NCBI GenBank assembly: GCA_025058225.1
Contig: JANXEE010000022.1
Span: forward strand, 1 to 14,886
DNA from: Candidatus Calditenuaceae archaeon
Lineage (GTDB): Archaea > Thermoproteota > Nitrososphaeria_A > Caldarchaeales > Calditenuaceae
Length of the DNA stretch: 14,886 bases
Direction of reading: 5' to 3'
A program made the position numbers and the translations under genes. Below the pieces are notes generated by a model. The model was not told where the DNA came from, did not search any database, and saw only the letters and a list, made by a program, of their open reading frames with translations. Below, one piece after another: positions 10,246 to 14,886 of the stretch. Numbering within the stretch: position 1 is the first letter of the stretch; each line of letters starts with the position of its first letter.

Positions 10246-10926
10246 GTGAGTTATCGGGAAGTCGCGCAGAACATCGAGCGCCTCCTCAAGCTGAGGAGGC
10301 CCATAGTGGCCATCGCGTACGTGAAGGGTGATCCGCAGGACCTCAAACCCGTTGAAGCGGCACCGCCTTCCAGCTGCACCTTTTGGGCGCTGGCGCAGCT
10401 GAGCTCGTTCAAGACATACAGAGAGCACCACCTTAACTGCAGCATCGGTTCGGTGACCCATGGAATTCGTAGCGCGGAAGAGGTAAGGCCGGGATGCGGG
10501 TGCGCCGACATCGATTTCTTGGTCGAATGCGAGTGGATTACGGAGGAGGAGTTGAGACGTATGCCATCGGTTAAGTTCTCCGGCGGGACCATCTGTTACG
10601 GCCCCCTCAGACAGATCGAGTTCGAACCCGACCTGATACTCATGTTCTGCAACGCCGAGCAGTCGATGTACGTGTCGTCAGCTTTACCCGTGAAGCCCAA
10701 GACGGTGGGGCGCCCCTCGTGCGTCGGCGTGCCCGTTGCGCTCAACGAGAAGGTGCCGGTGATGAGTCTAGGATGTAACCCCAGCAGGCTGAGGGCTGGT
10801 TACGGTCCGGACGAGCTGGTGGTCTTCATTCCAGGCGAGATGATCAGACCGTTCCACGACAACCTCCTCCGAATCATTGAGATCGAGGACAAAGTCGCGG
10901 TCGCGGTGCTACAGGGAAGAGGTTGA
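10246..10926 (+). CDS. DUF169 (COG2043, 'ArCR') family protein of unknown function
   Basis: 226 aa. The pattern RPIVAIAY...C.FWA.A......H..C.IG...HG...FEPDLILMFCNAEQSMYV...RPSC.G.P......V.MSLGC..SR.....DELVVFIP matches my recollection of DUF169 proteins. The protein is Cys-rich (10 Cys). Confidence 0.7.
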   Translation: MSYREVAQNIERLLKLRRPIVAIAYVKGDPQDLKPVEAAPPSSCTFWALAQLSSFKTYREHHLNCSIGSVTHGIRSAEEVRPGCGCADIDFLVECEWITEEELRRMPSVKFSGGTICYGPLRQIEFEPDLILMFCNAEQSMYVSSALPVKPKTVGRPSCVGVPVALNEKVPVMSLGCNPSRLRAGYGPDELVVFIPGEMIRPFHDNLLRIIEIEDKVAVAVLQGRG

Positions 10927-10994
10927 ACGCCGGAGAGAGAGCTCGCGTTCGGCCGTATCACGAAGTCCCACAGCCCACGCGTAGGCCGGACCCT

Positions 10995-11345
10995 TCAGAG
11001 GACCCTAGCTCCGTCCTGAATGTCCCTCTCTGGGATCAAGGGTACCACATCGGTCTCATCGGTCATCGCGGCCAGTATCATGCACTCCGATACGAGCCCC
11101 CTCACCTTCTTGGGCCTGAGGTTCGTCACGAAGACGAACTTCCTGTTGATGAAGTGCTCTGGACCGTACAGGTGCCCTAGTCCCGCGAGCGCCTGCTTGC
11201 GGAAGGCCCCGAAGTCGACGGTCAACCTGATCAACTTGTCCGTGCCTTGAACCCTCTCGGCATCGATGACCCTCCCTATCCTGATGTCGACGCGCCTGAA
11301 CTCCGCGATGTCGAGTTCCGAGCTCAAACCCCGATGTCTCGGCAT
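10995..11345 (-). CDS. Stand-alone tRNA-binding domain protein (Trbp111/CsaA/EMAP-II-like OB fold)
   Basis: DIRIGRVIDAERVQGTDKLIRLTVDFG...GLGHLYGPEHFINRKFVFVTNLRPKKVRGLVSECMILAA...VVPLIPERDIQDGARV aligns by eye along the full length of Trbp111/CsaA. The start is placed at ATG 11345 (116 aa). The ORF track extends to 11444 (GTG) and there is an ATG at 11396, so the exact start is uncertain. Confidence 0.8.
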   Translation of the reverse strand: MPRHRGLSSELDIAEFRRVDIRIGRVIDAERVQGTDKLIRLTVDFGAFRKQALAGLGHLYGPEHFINRKFVFVTNLRPKKVRGLVSECMILAAMTDETDVVPLIPERDIQDGARVL

Positions 11346-11448
11346 AGCTGGTAGATTAATTGTGCGAGCTCTCCGAAGGATAGGAGCGGATCGCATGAAG
11401 GTGTTTCGGATTACCTCCGGAGCCCGAACCCTGCCACCACGCACTCCC

Positions 11449-11455
11449 TTTAAAT
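11449..11455 (+). promoter_or_regulatory. TATA box TTTAAAT upstream of the SMC-like gene
   Basis: The only AT-rich heptamer near the gene, centred about 34 nt upstream of ATG 11486. The TTTAAA core is palindromic, so it could in principle also serve the divergent tRNA-binding gene. Confidence 0.45.
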
Positions 11456-11485
11456 CATGGACGGGCAGACGGCCCTCGGGTAAGG

Positions 11486-13228
11486 ATGGTTAAGGTCCAC
11501 GGGCCTCTCGAGGAGACGAAAACGGTCCTCAGGAGGGTCCACATCAGGGAGGTGGTCCTAGAGAACTTCATGTCCCATGAGTACTCGAGGGTGAAGATAT
11601 CGCGGGGCATCAACCTGATAACCGGCCCCAACGGTGCCGGCAAGTCGTCTATACTGCTCGGCATCTCTGTCGCGCTGGGCCAGAGTTACACGGAGAGGGG
11701 CGAGAGGCTCGCGGACCTGATAAGACGGGGTCAGGACTCGGCGAGGATCTCGGTGGTGCTGGACAACTCGCCGATCGAGGGCGAGCGCCCCGTCAGGTCG
11801 ATCCCGCTCGACACCATCACGATCACCCGGTACATCAAGAGGACCGGAGAGTACTGGCACTACGTCAACAACAGGTTCAGGACCAAGGCCGAGGTCGACC
11901 AGCTCCTCAGGTCCCTGGGGATCAACCCGAACAACCTGCTCATCGTGATGCACCAGAACATGATAGAGGAGTTCGCGGCTAGGGACGACTCGGAGAAGCT
12001 CAGGATGCTGGAGGACGCCGTCGGGCTGTCGTCGATGAGGGAGAGGATCCTCCAGGCCGCCGCAAAGCTGTCATCGCTGATGGGTGAGGTCAACACGGTC
12101 AGGAAGGCCCTCGAGGAGGCCGGGGCCTCGGTTGAGTACTGGAAGGCTGAAGTCGAGAGGCTAACCAGAAAGCGCGAGCTGGAGTCACGAAGAGAATCCC
12201 TAGAACTGGAGTATCTATACAGCCTTGCAAGGACGACCGAGCTGGCCCTGAAGAGGAAGACGGAGCTGCTGGAGCGGGTGAGGTCCGAGCTCTCCAGCCT
12301 GAGGGATGAGGGCGCCGAGGTCTCAGAACAGCTGACTTCCAGAAGGGCCGCGTTGGTGAACCTCCTCAGAGGTGGTCCGCTGGACGTCGATGCGGTCATG
12401 AAGGAGGTGGACGTGCTGATTGAGCTGGCCTCGAGAAAGGGCGTTATCGCTTACAGGTCTGATGAGCTCGAGAGGGAGAGGAGGGAGCTGGAGAAGGAGA
12501 TCAGGGCCCTCGAGAGGGAGCTGGAGGAGCGGATCAGGATTGCGTCGGAAAGGGGGCCACGTGTGGAGACATCCAGGGAGCCCTCGGAGGTGCAGGAGGA
12601 GCTGAGGTTCGTCACCCTTCAGCTCTCGTCGATAGGCACCGTCATTCAGGAGGCAGAGGAGATGTACTTCATGGCCGACTCGAAGTTCAGGGGCATACAG
12701 ATCAAGGCCGAGGAGCTCGAGCAGAACGTCAAGAAGGCCCTCGAGGAGGTCGAGCACAGGAAGCGGATATGGCGCGAGAAGCTCGAGGAGCTGATCGGCG
12801 AGGTGAGCCCCGTCTACGACGAGATCCTCTCGAGCGTCGGGGGAGCAGGCACGATTCGGCTGAGGGGGTTGGAGGACCCGTCGACTGCGAGGCTTGAGCT
12901 GTACGTGGGCTTCAGGGGTAACCCGGCTACATTACTCGACGCTAGAACGCACAGCGGCGGTGAGAGGGTCCTGGCCACGCTCGGCTTCCTGCTGGCCGTC
13001 CAGTCGAGGGTCAAGTCGCCCTTCAGAGCGGTAGACGAATTCGACGTCCACCTCGACCCCCTCAACAGGGAGAGGATGATGACGATGCTCCTCGAGACCG
13101 CTCGGAGGCACGGAGACGTTCAGTACCTGATCATCACGCCCGGCAGGGTTCCCGAGATGGACGGCATCAACGTGATACTCGTGCAGAACGTCTCCGGCCG
13201 CTCGATCGTCACGGGTCGATCCCCATGA
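11486..13228 (+). CDS. Short SMC-superfamily ATPase (580 aa) with an Smc5/6-like head, short coiled coil, and no hinge or zinc hook
   Basis: Walker A GPNGAGKS is at 11624-11647, within VVLENFMSHE...INLITGPNGAGKSSILLGISVALG. Signature SGGER is at 12953-12967 and Walker B DEFDVHLD at 13034-13057. About 270 aa of heptad-rich E/R/L sequence separate the head halves, with an apex near LLRGGPLDVDAVMKEV. There is no Gly-rich hinge domain and no CxxC hook. Confidence 0.85.
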   Translation: MVKVHGPLEETKTVLRRVHIREVVLENFMSHEYSRVKISRGINLITGPNGAGKSSILLGISVALGQSYTERGERLADLIRRGQDSARISVVLDNSPIEGERPVRSIPLDTITITRYIKRTGEYWHYVNNRFRTKAEVDQLLRSLGINPNNLLIVMHQNMIEEFAARDDSEKLRMLEDAVGLSSMRERILQAAAKLSSLMGEVNTVRKALEEAGASVEYWKAEVERLTRKRELESRRESLELEYLYSLARTTELALKRKTELLERVRSELSSLRDEGAEVSEQLTSRRAALVNLLRGGPLDVDAVMKEVDVLIELASRKGVIAYRSDELERERRELEKEIRALERELEERIRIASERGPRVETSREPSEVQEELRFVTLQLSSIGTVIQEAEEMYFMADSKFRGIQIKAEELEQNVKKALEEVEHRKRIWREKLEELIGEVSPVYDEILSSVGGAGTIRLRGLEDPSTARLELYVGFRGNPATLLDARTHSGGERVLATLGFLLAVQSRVKSPFRAVDEFDVHLDPLNRERMMTMLLETARRHGDVQYLIITPGRVPEMDGINVILVQNVSGRSIVTGRSP

Positions 13229-13977
13229 AGTTCATCGAGGTAAGGATCGAGGAGCTTCGCAGGATGGCCGCTGCACTCGAGTCGGTCCTGAACATGAAGG
13301 TCGAACCCTTCACGGTCAACGTCAGCTCCCTCCTCAAGCGGCTGAGGTCCATCATCGAGGAGAGCAGGGATTTCGAGACGGTCGTGCTCGACGCGGAGGT
13401 GCTCTACAGGGTCTCCGTGGTCCTCGGGCTCCAACAGAAGTACATACTGCAGAGCGCATCTTCGCTGCTGGTCGATTCGCAAGTGATCGTCGCGAAGGTT
13501 CTGAGGTCGGAGCCACACGAGCTGGCCGCGGCCTTCATGACCGCCTGGCGCCCTCTCGCGAGGCTCGAGCACGTCACCACGCCCCTACTCATCAGGGCCT
13601 ACGAGCACTTCCTCTCTCTACCCGGGAAGCTGGTGAGACCCGAGACGGTCACGGCCTCCAACGAGAGGGCGCCCGGATGGGACGTTTACGAGGCCCTGTT
13701 CGAGGAGGAGCTCAGGTCCCTGAGGTCGGAGCTCGAGTCGGAGACCGGCTGGGTTGACTACTGGGAGTTCATATCGAGGGCCGGCGGGCGCTCAAGGACC
13801 AACAGGGCCTACCTGCTGAGCTTCCTCATCACCAGGGGCGAGGTGGAGGTCCAGTATGACCCCCTCAAGGAGGAGATCCGCGTCAAGGCTTCTGCCCCTT
13901 CCCCGTCACGGAGGGAGGGAGGGGTGCTGTCCCTGGTGATAACCTTGGGGCCGACCGGATCGGAGGTCACAGGCTGA
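13225..13977 (+). CDS. ScpA/kleisin-like protein (250 aa), putative partner of the SMC-like ATPase
   Basis: ATGA start/stop overlap with the upstream gene (13225-13228). The length and layout resemble ScpA. The N-terminal FTVNVSSLLKRL ... LDAEVLYRVSVVLGLQQKYILQ parallels PLDLLL.LI ... A.EYLVMAATLL.IKS..LL. The C-terminal WVDYWEFI...RAYLLSFLITRGEVEVQYDPLKEEIRV parallels the winged-helix ...VVTFLAILEL.K...v...Q...F.dI.i. Similarity is by pattern only. Confidence 0.55.
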   Translation: MKFIEVRIEELRRMAAALESVLNMKVEPFTVNVSSLLKRLRSIIEESRDFETVVLDAEVLYRVSVVLGLQQKYILQSASSLLVDSQVIVAKVLRSEPHELAAAFMTAWRPLARLEHVTTPLLIRAYEHFLSLPGKLVRPETVTASNERAPGWDVYEALFEEELRSLRSELESETGWVDYWEFISRAGGRSRTNRAYLLSFLITRGEVEVQYDPLKEEIRVKASAPSPSRREGGVLSLVITLGPTGSEVTG

Positions 13978-14018
13978 GTCACCCGGCGACCTCTATGGCC
14001 AATCTCTGGGTCCGCGAG

Positions 14019-14080
14019 GCCCACTTTCGGCGAAGTTGACTGGCCGAGCCACTTTCGCGGGCCCCTCGGACTTTCGGCCG
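14019..14080. repeat. Three spaced copies of an ACTTTCG-core motif in the intergenic region upstream of the 93-aa ORF/PolB unit
   Basis: The copies are GAGGCCCACTTTCGGCG (core at 14023-14029), GAGCCACTTTCGCGG (core at 14051-14057) and CTCGGACTTTCGGCCG (core at 14070-14076). A degenerate GGACTTCTGAGG lies at 14107-14118. Core spacings are 28 and 19 nt. Confidence 0.4.
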
Positions 14081-14121
14081 ACTCTCCGTGAATTTCAGGC
14101 ACCAAAGGACTTCTGAGGTCG

Positions 14122-14403
14122 ATGGGCAGGACCGTCCCCACCTACAGGCAGAGGCTTCACGAGGAGCTGGAGAGGTGGAGGTGCTTCAGGTCGGCGCTCC
14201 TCAGGGACGAGAGGGAGGACTTCGACCGACTCTTGGACCAGGCCTTCAGGTACGTCCACGCCGGCTCCATGTGCCCCGAGAGGGAACCCTTCGAGGTCCT
14301 GGTGATCTCGCTGCTGCTGGCCCACGAGTCGAGGCTCAGGTCGATCGAGAGGGTGCTGAGAGTCGAGGTGTCCGAGTCCGGAGCGAGGGGACTTGATGGG
14401 TAG
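14122..14403 (+). CDS. Small conserved-looking helical protein (93 aa), function unknown, translationally coupled to the PolB gene
   Basis: MGRTVPTYRQRLHEELERWRCFRSALLRDEREDFDRLLDQAFRYVHAGSMCPEREPFEVLVISLLLAHESRL has balanced, amphipathic-helix composition. The two competing ORFs (14088..14396 plus strand, 14095..14325 minus strand) are G/R/P-rich junk. A weak TATA-like GAATTTCA lies about 29 nt upstream. The stop TAG at 14401-14403 overlaps the next gene's ATG (14396) by 8 nt. Confidence 0.6.
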   Translation: MGRTVPTYRQRLHEELERWRCFRSALLRDEREDFDRLLDQAFRYVHAGSMCPEREPFEVLVISLLLAHESRLRSIERVLRVEVSESGARGLDG

Positions 14404-14886
14404 GCTGCTGGACCTTAACCTCTCTCCCGACGGTGAAGCTGTGGAGCTGTGGGTCAGGACCGATGGGCTCCGTGTCGAGAGGTTCCGAGTGGGCTGGAGG
14501 CCCTCGATTTACGCCGTCGGACCAGAGGAGAGGCTCGAGGAGCTCGAAAGGACGTTCCAGGATGATTCGGAGCTGGTGATGGCCTCTGAGGTGCCGGAGA
14601 AGGAGCCGAGGCCGGCGCTGAAGCTCAGGGTGAGGCCACGGGAGAGGAAGGAGGTGGCCCGGAGGATCGAGTCGGCCTTCGGGAGGGAGGGAGTGAGGCT
14701 CTACAACGTCGACGTCCCGGTCCTTCAGCAGTTCCTATACGAGCGGCGTCTTTTCCCGACGGCGCTGGTGGAGGTCCGCGAAGATCTGGGTGAGCTGAGG
14801 GCCCTTGACTCGAGGGAGGACACCGACTACGACGTCTCGTGGATCAGGGTTGCGGAGCTCGAAGTGTCTGCAGTCCAACGGTTCGA
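14396..14886 (+). CDS. polB: Family B DNA polymerase, N-terminal domain (partial, continues off the right edge)
   Basis: This ORF is not in the supplied track because it is open-ended. My translation from ATG 14396 is MGRLLDLNLSPDGEAVELWVRTDGLRVERFRVGWRPSIYAVGPEERLEELERTF...REGVRLYNVDVPVLQQFLYERRLFPTALVEV...DVSWIRVAELEVSA. It parallels archaeal PolB N-termini (iLDvdY...g.pvi.lf.k..g......d..frPYiYa ... v.i.E.DIpf..RyLiDkgl.P). No stop codon occurs for 163 codons. Confidence 0.65.
   Translation, partial: MGRLLDLNLSPDGEAVELWVRTDGLRVERFRVGWRPSIYAVGPEERLEELERTFQDDSELVMASEVPEKEPRPALKLRVRPRERKEVARRIESAFGREGVRLYNVDVPVLQQFLYERRLFPTALVEVREDLGELRALDSREDTDYDVSWIRVAELEVSAVQRF

Follow-up and report, generated by a model that had tools for sequence, protein, structure and literature searches.

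The window analysed here, a 14,886-nucleotide stretch of DNA from a Candidatus Calditenuaceae archaeon, carries two overlapping genes which probably encode the ATPase and the kleisin of an archaeal 'SMC5/6-related' complex, the kite being encoded at another locus; we consider it likely that this complex is a hinge-less, head-proximal, ATP-gated clamp or sensor. The pair is the Aigarchaeota version of a published Smc5/6-related family, and its membership of that family is not new. The missing hinge and arm length of the ATPase appear to have gone unremarked in the accessible portions of the papers that define the family (Yoshinaga & Inagaki; van Hooff et al.), and coiled-coil regions were taken out of the alignments in published SMC5/6-related work.

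The ATPase head is closest in sequence to Smc5 and Smc6

The ATPase gene and the elements of its head are as follows.

11486..13228, + strand: SMC5/6-related archaeal SMC-like ATPase, 580 aa (Pfam SMC_N, Smc5/Smc6 structure matches, Foldseek)
11540..12025, + strand: N-terminal half of the ATPase head, aa 19-180 (AlphaFold2 secondary structure, motifs, low column entropy in 82 homologs)
11558-11581, + strand: LENFMSHE, aa 25-32
11624-11647, + strand: Walker A, GPNGAGKS, aa 47-54
11954-11974, + strand: Q-loop region, QNMIEEF, aa 157-163
12842..13180, + strand: C-terminal half of the ATPase head, aa 453-565 (motif positions, alignment to Smc5/Smc6)
12953-12967, + strand: signature, SGGER, aa 490-494
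13034-13057, + strand: Walker B, DEFDVHLD, aa 517-524
13133-13141, + strand: ITP at the switch-loop position of the C-terminal head half

The sequence-only reading had described a 580-aa SMC-type ATPase with the motifs GPNGAGKS, SGGER and DEFDVHLD, and all of these were located in the ORF at 11486-13228. Its product matched Pfam SMC_N with E = 5e-32 and was 100% identical to P0001, the same protein being annotated in assembly GCA_033581515.1. The Walker A, Q-loop, signature and Walker B columns were invariant among 47 homologs; of the features by which SMC proteins are strictly defined, the ATPase thus possesses the split ABC head, in N- and C-terminal halves, with all four motifs.

When the single ATPase sequence was compared with solved structures, yeast Smc5 was the top match at 132 bits, with Pyrococcus SMC at 91 bits and Rad50 at 32 bits or less. 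The family profile scored 179 bits against Smc5, 155-160 against Smc6, 120 against Pyrococcus SMC and approximately 85 against Smc2/3, and the C-terminal half of the head alone gave 54-55 bits with Smc5 and human Smc6 and 44 with SMC. In the alignment, DEFDVHLD and ITP of the window ATPase correspond to DEFDVYMD and LTP of human SMC6, and the motifs SPFR-DEFDV-D-NR and (I/L)TP are common to the ATPase, SMC6 and Smc5. A Foldseek search with the ATPase model returned SMC heads at E ~1e-20, the top match being 5xei, a Pyrococcus Smc structure comprising head, coiled coil and joint. Judged by sequence, the head stands nearer to Smc5/Smc6 than to either canonical SMC or Rad50, this affinity being a ranking by score rather than a phylogeny. 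The Smc5/6-like character proposed earlier for the head motifs was therefore borne out with both the single sequence and the family profile, for which Smc5 and Smc6 were the best structure matches; the profile and structure searches placed SMC and Smc5/6 heads on top, far above Rad50.

The arm is predicted to be a short hairpin without hinge or hook

About 270 aa separate the two head halves, and AlphaFold2 modelled the ATPase with a mean pLDDT of 87, placing the N-terminal head at aa 19-180 and the C-terminal head at aa 453-565. The following elements were predicted between them.

12029..12370, + strand: ascending arm helix, aa 182-295, 114 residues, ~17 nm (AlphaFold2, pLDDT mostly 88-96)
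12371..12385, + strand: arm tip, a 5-residue turn, GGPLD, aa 296-300, at the place of a hinge or hook (AlphaFold2 loop)
12386..12832, + strand: descending arm, helices at aa 301-356, 366-383 and 390-449 (AlphaFold2)

No globular hinge was present in the AlphaFold2 model, in which the antiparallel arm strands turn via the 5-residue loop, nor was any Pfam hinge-domain match to the ATPase reported up to E = 1. The breaks in the descending arm at aa 357-365 and 384-389 may, in this model, be equivalent to the SMC 'joint'. A CxxC hook is impossible, as the 580-aa protein contains no cysteine, and CxxC was found in none of 82 sequences of the family. Among these 82, which range in length from 563 to 629 aa, the arm tip was the most variable block (entropy 3.0; indels of 0-30 aa) and no conserved interface was found there; the neck portion of the arm was better conserved than the distal portion. 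Taken together, the model and the alignment indicate a hairpin arm, lacking both hinge and hook, across the ATPase family. Two further features of a strictly defined SMC protein are accordingly missing from the ATPase, namely a dimerising globular hinge and a long arm of ~300-350 residues per strand, the predicted strands having ~114 residues.

These results agree with the earlier claim of a protein with neither hinge nor CxxC hook and with head halves approximately 270 aa apart: in the model, a helix of 114 residues leads through a 5-residue turn into a return arm, with no hinge fold, the sequence has no cysteine and the tip is variable. The arms had also been described as much shorter than canonical ones, which held, and as roughly a quarter of their length, which did not; at ~114 residues (~17 nm) the window arm is nearer one third than one quarter of the canonical SMC arm.

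The overlapping gene encodes a kleisin of Nse4 type

The ATPase stop codon overlaps the start of a second gene.

13225..13977, + strand: Nse4-type kleisin, 250 aa (family profile, Pfam Nse4_C in relatives, Foldseek)
13225..13617, + strand: N-terminal helical domain of the kleisin, aa 1-131, putative SMC-neck binding site (AlphaFold2)
13678..13890, + strand: C-terminal winged-helix domain of the kleisin, aa 152-222, putative SMC-cap binding site (Nse4 profile alignment, Foldseek, model)

The 250-aa ORF and its ATGA overlap had been noted from the letters of the DNA and were confirmed at 13225-13977, with the kleisin ATG at 13225-13227 and the SMC TGA at 13226-13228. A profile of the kleisin family (A3) matched, across the C-terminal domain, yeast Nse4 and the human Nse4 paralog EID3 (E = 8e-6 to 1e-5), and Pfam Nse4_C was present in 43 of 84 family members (best E = 7e-9). 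No direct match of the window kleisin alone to Pfam or to a solved structure was significant, and for this reason its assignment to the Nse4 type rests on the family.

AlphaFold2 modelled the kleisin (pLDDT 86) with helices in the N-terminal domain and a winged helix in the C-terminal one, the two being joined by a short linker. Kleisins made up eight of the ten top Foldseek matches of the 250-aa model, the TM-scores of whole-chain matches to Nse4 being low; for the C-terminal domain, target-normalised TM-scores were 0.6-0.7 against the C-terminal winged helices of ScpA and Scc1. The conserved winged-helix motifs VDYWEF and RAYLLSFLITRG lie inside the profile alignment to the Nse4 C-terminal domain. 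In the N-terminal domain, aa 1-80 were modelled at pLDDT 86-98, with a long helix at aa 50-82 bearing a conserved LDAE-LYR motif, and the family profile weakly matched the N-domain of ScpA (6ivh_A; E = 0.18). The kleisin identity suggested by the sequence-only reading is upheld by the Nse4 profile (E ~1e-5), by Nse4_C in 43/84 relatives and by a Foldseek list led by kleisins, and the family profiles and the model mark the 250-aa protein as a kleisin of Nse4 type. By analogy, its N-domain presumably sits on the SMC neck and its C-domain on the SMC cap.

The kite gene has moved away from a conserved three-gene operon

More than 2,000 homologs of the ATPase exist, and 164 species genomes matched it; neighbourhoods and lengths were counted in the best 80 of these 164. 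Within this best 80 of 164, a kleisin homolog was the gene immediately 3' of SMC in 76 of 80 genomes, and an Nse1/3-like kite, a tandem winged-helix protein, was encoded directly 3' of the kleisin in 74 of 80. SMC, kleisin and kite form a three-gene operon across the family, its order being conserved in related genomes, and the system is found in Thermoproteota chromosomes of the Caldarchaeales/Aigarchaeota and the Methanomethylicia.

A tblastn search found no kite gene in the window, as had been claimed for the immediate neighbourhood of the pair. The kite, P0384, is intact in the same assembly on another contig, JAVQTC010000001.1, and matched Pfam SMC_Nse1 with 27.9 bits (cut-off 23.3) and MAGE with 19.8 bits; it lies away from the kleisin in the window genome and its two closest relatives. 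The proposal of a two-gene module consequently fell, both on the 74/80 genomes in which a kite follows the kleisin and on P0384 itself, and where a kite has relocated, an operon survey that finds none adjacent does not imply a two-subunit complex.

The sequence flanking the pair contains three features.

11449..11454, + strand: TTTAAA, a TATA-box-like element ~35 nt 5' of the SMC start codon (read from the sequence)
14122..14403, + strand: 93-aa ORF (DUF8156 in precomputed Pfam hits; a separate Pfam scan gave no match)
14396..14886, + strand: 5' part of a family-B DNA polymerase gene whose product has 723 aa in the full contig (Pfam DNA_pol_B, 70 bits; full-length product from L003)

The upstream minus-strand gene, with a tRNA-binding domain, ends at ~11327, so that TTTAAA at 11449..11454 lies in a divergent intergenic region, and we infer from its sequence that it is a candidate archaeal promoter of the operon. 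The 93-aa ORF occupies the usual place of the kite but is outside the SMC system: it bears no similarity to the HR02 kite, and is found in the kite position only in the window genome and two others (L005 and L006). A PolB gene had been placed downstream on the same strand, and it is there; as a conserved association the arrangement did not survive, being seen only in the window genome and its two closest relatives, and the adjacency is a rearrangement specific to this clade of three genomes.

The family has been described before

The module had been thought poorly characterised, a view overturned by two earlier studies. Yoshinaga & Inagaki (2021; PMC8665677) described the SMC clade as 'SMC5/6-related aSMC', and van Hooff et al. 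(bioRxiv 10.1101/2024.01.07.573240, Suppl. Table 3) listed the ortholog of HR02 (Ca. Calditenuaceae) as an SMC5/6-related SMC with an Nse4-related kleisin and an Nse1/3-related kite; the published phylogenies in both group the SMC5/6-related clade with SMC5/6. The HR02 protein P0033, 58% identical to the window ATPase over its full length, is BEHE01000017.1_4, and the window kleisin shares 48% identity with its HR02 counterpart, BEHE01000017.1_3. P0033 is the fourth gene from the start of BEHE01000017.1, and genes of 241 aa and 201 aa come after it; these three are BEHE01000017.1_4, _3 and _2 of the 'Gene cluster examples' in Suppl. Table 3, the gene numbers being deduced from gene order. The automated sheet of the same table gives HR02 zero 'SMC-kleisin neighbours', while the examples sheet gives _4, _3 and _2 as a cluster; because of that zero, the exact short HR02 protein may have been lacking from the preprint phylogeny.

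Other explanations for a short SMC-like protein

The source is a metagenome-assembled genome and canonical SMCs are about twice as long, and the short length might accordingly be an artefact, arising from a truncated or fused gene call, from misassembly or from the decay of an SMC gene into a pseudogene. The frame is uninterrupted, however, both head halves are whole with invariant catalytic motifs, a length of 563-629 aa recurs in 80 independent genomes and in >100 protein clusters drawn from several data sources, and the AlphaFold2 model is confident over the entire arm; with length and sequence thus conserved, this reading is refuted and its probability negligible. It is also unlikely that the family is as we describe it with its arms swapped, the ascending helix of one subunit pairing with the descending arm of another in a rod-shaped dimer that has composite heads at its two ends. 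With no dimerisation element at the arm tip, other dimerising means are needed, and a monomer prediction does not distinguish intramolecular from intermolecular pairing, but the 5-residue turn was confidently modelled as a hairpin and a kleisin bridge from neck to cap fits two adjacent heads. To our knowledge, the arms are intramolecular in all SMC-family structures solved so far.

A role as an SMC-like sensor of anti-plasmid or anti-phage defence, akin to Lamassu LmuB, MADS mad3 or Wadjet, instead of chromosome maintenance, would be in keeping with PADLOC matches of the ATPase to mad3 (113 bits) and LmuB (65 bits), with the similar size of LmuB, ~650 aa with short coiled coils, and with the restriction of extrachromosomal DNA by eukaryotic Smc5/6 itself (PMC10586767). 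We judge it very unlikely: the PADLOC matches fall on generic parts of the head, with scores below those for Smc5/6 and SMC, the kleisin and kite have none, LmuB itself lacks kleisin or kite partners, and no nuclease or other effector gene adjoins the SMC pair. Each of the 80 genomes kept (the best 80 of 164, from two archaeal classes) has one locus, flanked by housekeeping genes, which is unlike a patchy defence island. Scarcely credible, and in effect refuted by missed cut-offs and a missing hook, is an archaea-specific SMC-related protein (ASRP: coalescin ClsN, Sph1/2) or a member of the Rad50/arcadin-4 branch, all short coiled-coil ABC ATPases. Although the lengths are alike (593 positions in the NCBIfam ASRP model) and weak NCBIfam matches exist to ASRP (66.9 bits), Rad50 (up to 69) and arcadin-4 (32), these fall far under the curated cut-offs of 300 to ~1000 bits (ASRP NF045487, 300; Rad50, at least 700), and are greatly exceeded by the matches to SMC and Smc5/6. 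A zinc hook is a feature of both ASRPs and Rad50 (PMC9389158), whereas the window ATPase has no cysteine and its 82 relatives no CxxC; it is partnered by a kleisin and a kite instead of Mre11, and the 10 kb to each side contain no Mre11-like gene.

A proposed head-proximal clamp and its known counterparts

By analogy with Smc-ScpAB and Smc5/6, the SMC5/6-related complex that we favour would contain two ATPase subunits holding two ATP between their heads. One kleisin would bridge them asymmetrically, its N-terminal helices contacting one subunit at the neck and its C-terminal winged helix the other at the cap, and a dimer of kites would be placed on the kleisin; DNA would be clamped atop the engaged heads, within the kleisin compartment. 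Because the arms are predicted ~17 nm hairpins with a variable tip, a large hinge-closed SMC lumen is probably beyond this complex, and its role would be that of an ATP-gated DNA clamp or sensor near the heads in genome maintenance, not that of a long-armed loop extruder. More tentatively, and with some doubt, we propose that the closest prokaryotic relatives of Smc5/6 in Caldarchaeales and Methanomethylicia could be natural 'headpiece-only' complexes, reduced to head, neck, joint, kleisin and kite with ~17 nm hairpins and neither hinge nor hook. Unable to hold DNA in a lumen closed by a hinge, they would work as a pure, ATP-gated kleisin-head clamp or through a new mode of dimerisation; such an architecture is apparently unremarked by the authors who defined the family.

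The window pair shares family, TACK lineage and a Smc5/6-affine head with the archaeal 'SMC5/6-related' complexes, from which it differs in having its kite split from the operon. With eukaryotic Smc5/6 (Smc5, Smc6, Nse4, Nse1, Nse3) it has in common head motifs that include SPFR-DEFDV and the (I/L)TP switch region, the Nse4-type C-terminal winged helix of the kleisin and a kite of Nse1/MAGE type. The eukaryotic complex, however, is a heterodimer of ~1,100-aa subunits, whereas the window system is presumably a homodimer of one 580-aa subunit, hinge-less and with arms approximately one third as long; Nse2, Nse5 and Nse6 were not seen, and the kite of the window system has no RING domain. Smc-ScpAB, which is condensin-like, is alike in presumed stoichiometry, in operon logic (SMC, kleisin, kite) and in a kleisin of ~250 aa, but the window head is nearer Smc5/6, its kleisin and kite are of Nse4 and Nse1/3 types rather than ScpA and ScpB, and it has no hinge. 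ASRP/coalescin, Lamassu LmuB and RecN resemble the window ATPase in size (~550-650 aa) and in arms of ~15-20 nm; in contrast, they dimerise by zinc hooks or arm-end contacts, without kleisin or kite, and scored much lower.

Significance for the Smc5/6 lineage

What marks out an SMC protein, as the field defines it, is a hinge in combination with kleisin and kite or HAWK partners (PMC10586767). The present family, large and conserved, has retained the SMC partners, yet is predicted to be without the hinge and two thirds of the arm, and the translocation and loop-extrusion models of today depend on the arm-hinge compartment. If confirmed biochemically, the complex would be a natural minimal SMC machine in which head, kleisin and kite could be tested alone; were the headpiece-only reading true, it would provide a minimal thermostable system for learning which SMC activities need arms and hinge. 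Current work treats the archaeal SMC5/6-related complexes as the likely source of eukaryotic Smc5/6, and the short arms raise a question of polarity: they may have arisen by truncation among the TACK archaea, or the Smc5/6 lineage may have been short-armed ancestrally. The headpiece-only reading, if true, would bear on whether the Smc5/6 ancestor was long- or short-armed.

The SMC ATPase carries an Smc5/6-like head

The window comes from the chromosome of a Caldarchaeales genome (Aigarchaeota, Ca. Calditenuaceae) assembled from a metagenome, and its 580-aa product is identical to protein P0001 on contig JAVQTC010000003.1 of assembly GCA_033581515.1. The sequence-only reading had described two overlapping genes, the first bearing SMC-type head motifs; both ORFs and the overlap are present in the sequence, and the motifs lie where that reading placed them in the 580-aa protein.

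11486-13228, +, SMC ORF, 580 aa (ORF reading)
13225-13977, +, kleisin ORF, 250 aa, with ATGA overlap with the SMC stop

The SMC protein matched Pfam SMC_N (E = 5e-32), and in NCBIfam the leading models were the SMC equivalogs, at 167 and 135 bits; both scores fall far short of the cut-off, since the protein lacks the hinge and most of the arm. When the single protein was searched against all solved-structure sequences, yeast Smc5 was the top match (132 bits), with Pyrococcus SMC and human Smc6 at 91 bits each and Rad50 at no more than 32. A family profile gave 179 bits for Smc5, 160 for human Smc6 and 155 for yeast Smc6, followed by Pyrococcus SMC (120) and Smc2/Smc3 (about 85); judged by these sequence scores, the profile sharpens the single-sequence ranking, and the order of matches was unchanged when the C-head alone was used. 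The motifs common to the two C-heads are directly visible in their alignment:

window, SPFRAVDEFDVHLDPLNR...QYLIITPG
human SMC6, SPFRCLDEFDVYMDMVNR...QFILLTPQ

At the switch-loop position of this alignment ITP is found in Smc5 as well; canonical SMCs carry a histidine there. Foldseek placed the window SMC model among SMC heads (E ~1e-20), with the Pyrococcus Smc head with coiled coil and joint (5xei) as top match, Smc5/6 head regions at ranks 3 to 7 and Rad50 at rank 30. The earlier reading of the head motifs as Smc5/6-like is thus upheld.

The arm ends in a short loop instead of a hinge

An AlphaFold2 model of the window SMC, built on 47 homologs, had a mean pLDDT of 87, with the arms mostly at 88-96, and was divided as follows:

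aa 19-180, N-head
aa 182-295, single arm helix
aa 296-300, arm-tip loop GGPLD, 5 residues
aa 301-356, 366-383 and 390-449, return helices
aa 453-565, C-head

The modelled chain passes from helix to loop to return helices and therefore has no globular hinge, as had been proposed from the sequence; the proposed lack of a Rad50-type hook is likewise borne out, the protein being without any cysteine. The arm measures about 114 residues per strand in the model, roughly 17 nm, or about a third of the canonical SMC arm length. Among 82 non-identical sequences the relatives were 563-629 aa long and none contained CxxC; variability peaked in the arm-tip block (mean entropy 3.0, indels of 0-30 residues), and the head-adjacent neck was clearly more conserved than the distal arm. 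The absent hinge is thus a trait of the whole family.

These observations bear on several other readings of the protein. Its shortness is no artefact, given that both length and sequence are conserved. Assignment to other families of head-bearing ATPases was rejected, as the hook is missing and all scores fell under the curated NCBIfam cut-offs: ASRP reached 67 bits against 300, Rad50 at most 69 against at least 700, and arcadin-4, RecF and RecN were also well below theirs. PADLOC did return matches to the defence proteins mad3 (113 bits) and LmuB (65 bits), which could place the SMC in a defence system; however, these are generic head matches only, the distribution is that of the core genome and no effector gene is adjacent, and we reject defence as the main reading.

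The downstream gene encodes an Nse4-type kleisin

By itself, the 250-aa protein returned nothing significant in Pfam, NCBIfam or solved-structure sequence searches, and Nse4 was reached only with family profiles. Such a profile recovered 215 clusters, nearly all of 230-280 aa, from 1.84 billion representative proteins. Pfam Nse4_C was detected in 43 of 84 aligned family members (best E 7e-9), and the best four solved-structure matches of the 84-member profile were to human EID3, a paralog of Nse4, and to yeast Nse4 (E = 8e-6 to 1e-5). They extend across the C-terminal domain with its conserved Y-W-F...RAYLLSFLI-G motif, and the N- and C-domains of ScpA were matched more weakly. The AlphaFold2 model (pLDDT 86) showed the following parts:

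helical N-terminal domain, containing a long helix (aa 50-82)
poorly ordered linker, about 20 residues
aa 152-222, C-terminal winged helix

Kleisins (Nse4, ScpA-C, Rad21, Brn1, Scc1-C) made up eight of its ten best Foldseek matches, with modest E-values, as expected because the protein is extended. Together these data sustain the earlier suggestion of a kleisin-like partner, and the protein is accepted as an Nse4-type kleisin; we infer that it binds the SMC neck and cap.

The system comprises three genes, with a relocated kite

One genome per species was scanned, and 164 genomes contained an SMC relative; the two DNA patterns of the scan retrieve only close relatives, and the best 80 of the 164 belong to Caldarchaeales, Methanomethylicia and a few other Thermoproteota. 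Matches spanned about 1.7 kb in all of these 80, and at 76 of the 80 loci a kleisin gene lay directly 3' of the SMC gene. Two further loci stop at the edge of their contig. In one Nitrososphaeria genome (L048, 2771-4852), two metabolic genes, for an HpcH/HpaI aldolase and a malate/L-lactate dehydrogenase-family protein, separate the SMC gene from the kleisin and kite genes, a further example of a split operon. In one Thermoprotei genome (L083, 1-2374), a 564-aa SMC relative is followed by a 208-aa ORF, which HMM and profile-profile comparison ruled out as a kleisin; the partner may lie elsewhere in that genome or be too divergent for detection.

At 74 of the best 80 loci the kleisin gene is followed by one for a 180-230 aa protein with weak matches to Pfam SMC_Nse1 and MAGE, an Nse1/3-like kite. 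Among loci of complete sequence this order is broken in L083, where no kleisin gene adjoins the SMC gene either, and in L005 and L006, the window's two nearest relatives, whose arrangement the window's own contig (L003) shares, with a 93-aa ORF and a family-B polymerase gene in the kite's place. As the earlier reading had noted, no kite adjoins the window pair: searched against the window with tblastn, the kite sequence produced chance matches only. The 93-aa ORF shows no similarity to the kite of HR02, a Ca. Calditenuaceae with a published ortholog cluster, and was rejected as a truncated kite.

The window's own assembly does encode a kite, the 204-aa P0384 on contig JAVQTC010000001.1, which matches SMC_Nse1 above the Pfam cut-off and whose gene adjoins those for UbiA and a DNA ligase; the L005 genome has a copy (P0401) at the syntenic place. 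P0380, considered as the window's unlinked kite, lies in a different assembly (GCA_025058055.1). Throughout the window's clade the kite gene is separate from the SMC and kleisin genes, on its own upstream of UbiA and close to a DNA ligase gene:

L090, 5001-5615, stand-alone kite gene (GCA_033581515.1, contig JAVQTC010000001.1)
L091, 5001-5615, stand-alone kite gene
L085, 8001-8615, stand-alone kite gene

The kite has been relocated in the window's genome, not lost, and the proposed two-gene module gives way to a system of three genes, SMC-kleisin-kite.

Genomic surroundings

The neighbours of the SMC and kleisin genes are ordinary housekeeping genes, encoding thioredoxin-fold and VKOR proteins, an ABC ATPase and FKBP26, V-type ATPase subunit C, a molybdenum hydroxylase, NUDIX and DUF169 proteins, and a protein with a tRNA-binding domain. 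A TTTAAA element, read from the sequence about 35 nt 5' of the SMC start codon in the divergent intergenic region, may be its promoter. A 75-aa ORF (+) that overlaps the SMC start and two further plus-strand ORFs upstream (window 11266-11493 and 10923-11250) overlap the minus-strand tRNA-binding-domain gene, which in the NCBI annotation encodes 110 aa and ends near 11327. None of these plus-strand ORFs had a family match, and they are probably not genes.

The link to the polymerase unit is a local rearrangement.

14021-14029, 14049-14057 and 14069-14077, copies of the CCACTTTCG / GACTTTCGG motif, spaced 28 and 20 bp
14122-14403, +, 93-aa ORF, DUF8156 in precomputed Pfam hits
14396-14886, +, family-B polymerase gene (723 aa; full in L003 12911-15082)

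A separate Pfam scan of the 93-aa ORF, which overlaps the polymerase start by 8 nt, gave no match. In the polymerase, Pfam detected a polymerase domain (aa 337-669, 70 bits) and no exonuclease domain; the protein may represent a PolB paralog, diverged or inactivated, that has a small partner. The three motif copies, in the intergenic region between kleisin and 93-aa ORF (13978-14121), are largely retained in L005 and L006, and could be a regulatory site for the DUF8156-polymerase unit or a chance feature of closely related DNA.

About 8 kb past the window's right end, L003 carries an actin-family gene (19941-21206, 421 aa, Pfam Actin), preceded by a 67-aa ORF. It may encode a crenactin-type archaeal actin homolog, and has no link to the SMC genes.

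Relation to published complexes and implications

The 'SMC5/6-related aSMC' clade, defined by Yoshinaga & Inagaki 2021 (PMC8665677), clusters with eukaryotic SMC5 and SMC6 and occurs mostly in TACK archaea. Kleisins related to Nse4 and kites related to Nse1/3 were added by van Hooff et al. (bioRxiv 10.1101/2024.01.07.573240), who give the HR02 SMC5/6-related cluster as BEHE01000017.1_4, _3 and _2 (Suppl. Table 3). P0033 (579 aa), the fourth gene product from the start of BEHE01000017.1, is 58% identical to the window SMC; the next two genes encode 241 and 201 aa, the former product sharing 48% identity with the window kleisin. Because both match on the cluster's own contig, the window pair is orthologous to the published example. 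In HR02 the short complex exists alongside a canonical SMC. The system belongs to a known, published family; the earlier observation is confirmed and its interpretation mostly right.

In the same table, HR02 receives a 0 for SMC5/6-related 'SMC-kleisin neighbours' on the automated sheet, whereas _4, _3 and _2 appear side by side on the examples sheet; on account of that zero, this exact short protein may be absent from the published phylogeny. The supplementary text of van Hooff et al. reports SMC-kleisin adjacency in 2 of 9 species, in contrast to 76 of 80 here (best 80 of 164), and their downsampled SMC set probably missed many short proteins.

By analogy with Smc-ScpAB and Smc5/6, the heads would form an ATP-dependent homodimer, with a single kleisin spanning from one subunit's neck to the other's cap and carrying a kite dimer, and DNA would be clamped on the engaged heads. 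Lacking a hinge, such a complex probably could not form a large SMC lumen, which would make a genome-maintenance role as a clamp or sensor close to the heads likelier than loop extrusion. The subunits might instead dimerise with arms swapped between them, a less likely, intermolecular arrangement with which the monomer model is compatible.

In the papers defining the family, coiled-coil columns were stripped out and proteins of 500 to 1,500 aa were all admitted, and a review whose definition of SMCs combines a hinge with kleisin and kite or HAWK partners (PMC10586767) makes no mention of a hinge-less member. Nor do the family-defining texts mention one, in a search of the open literature. The hinge-less architecture of the window's branch thus appears not to have been remarked on previously, and is the part worth pursuing. 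The relocated kite carries a second lesson, since operon-based surveys can wrongly score such a complex as kite-less.
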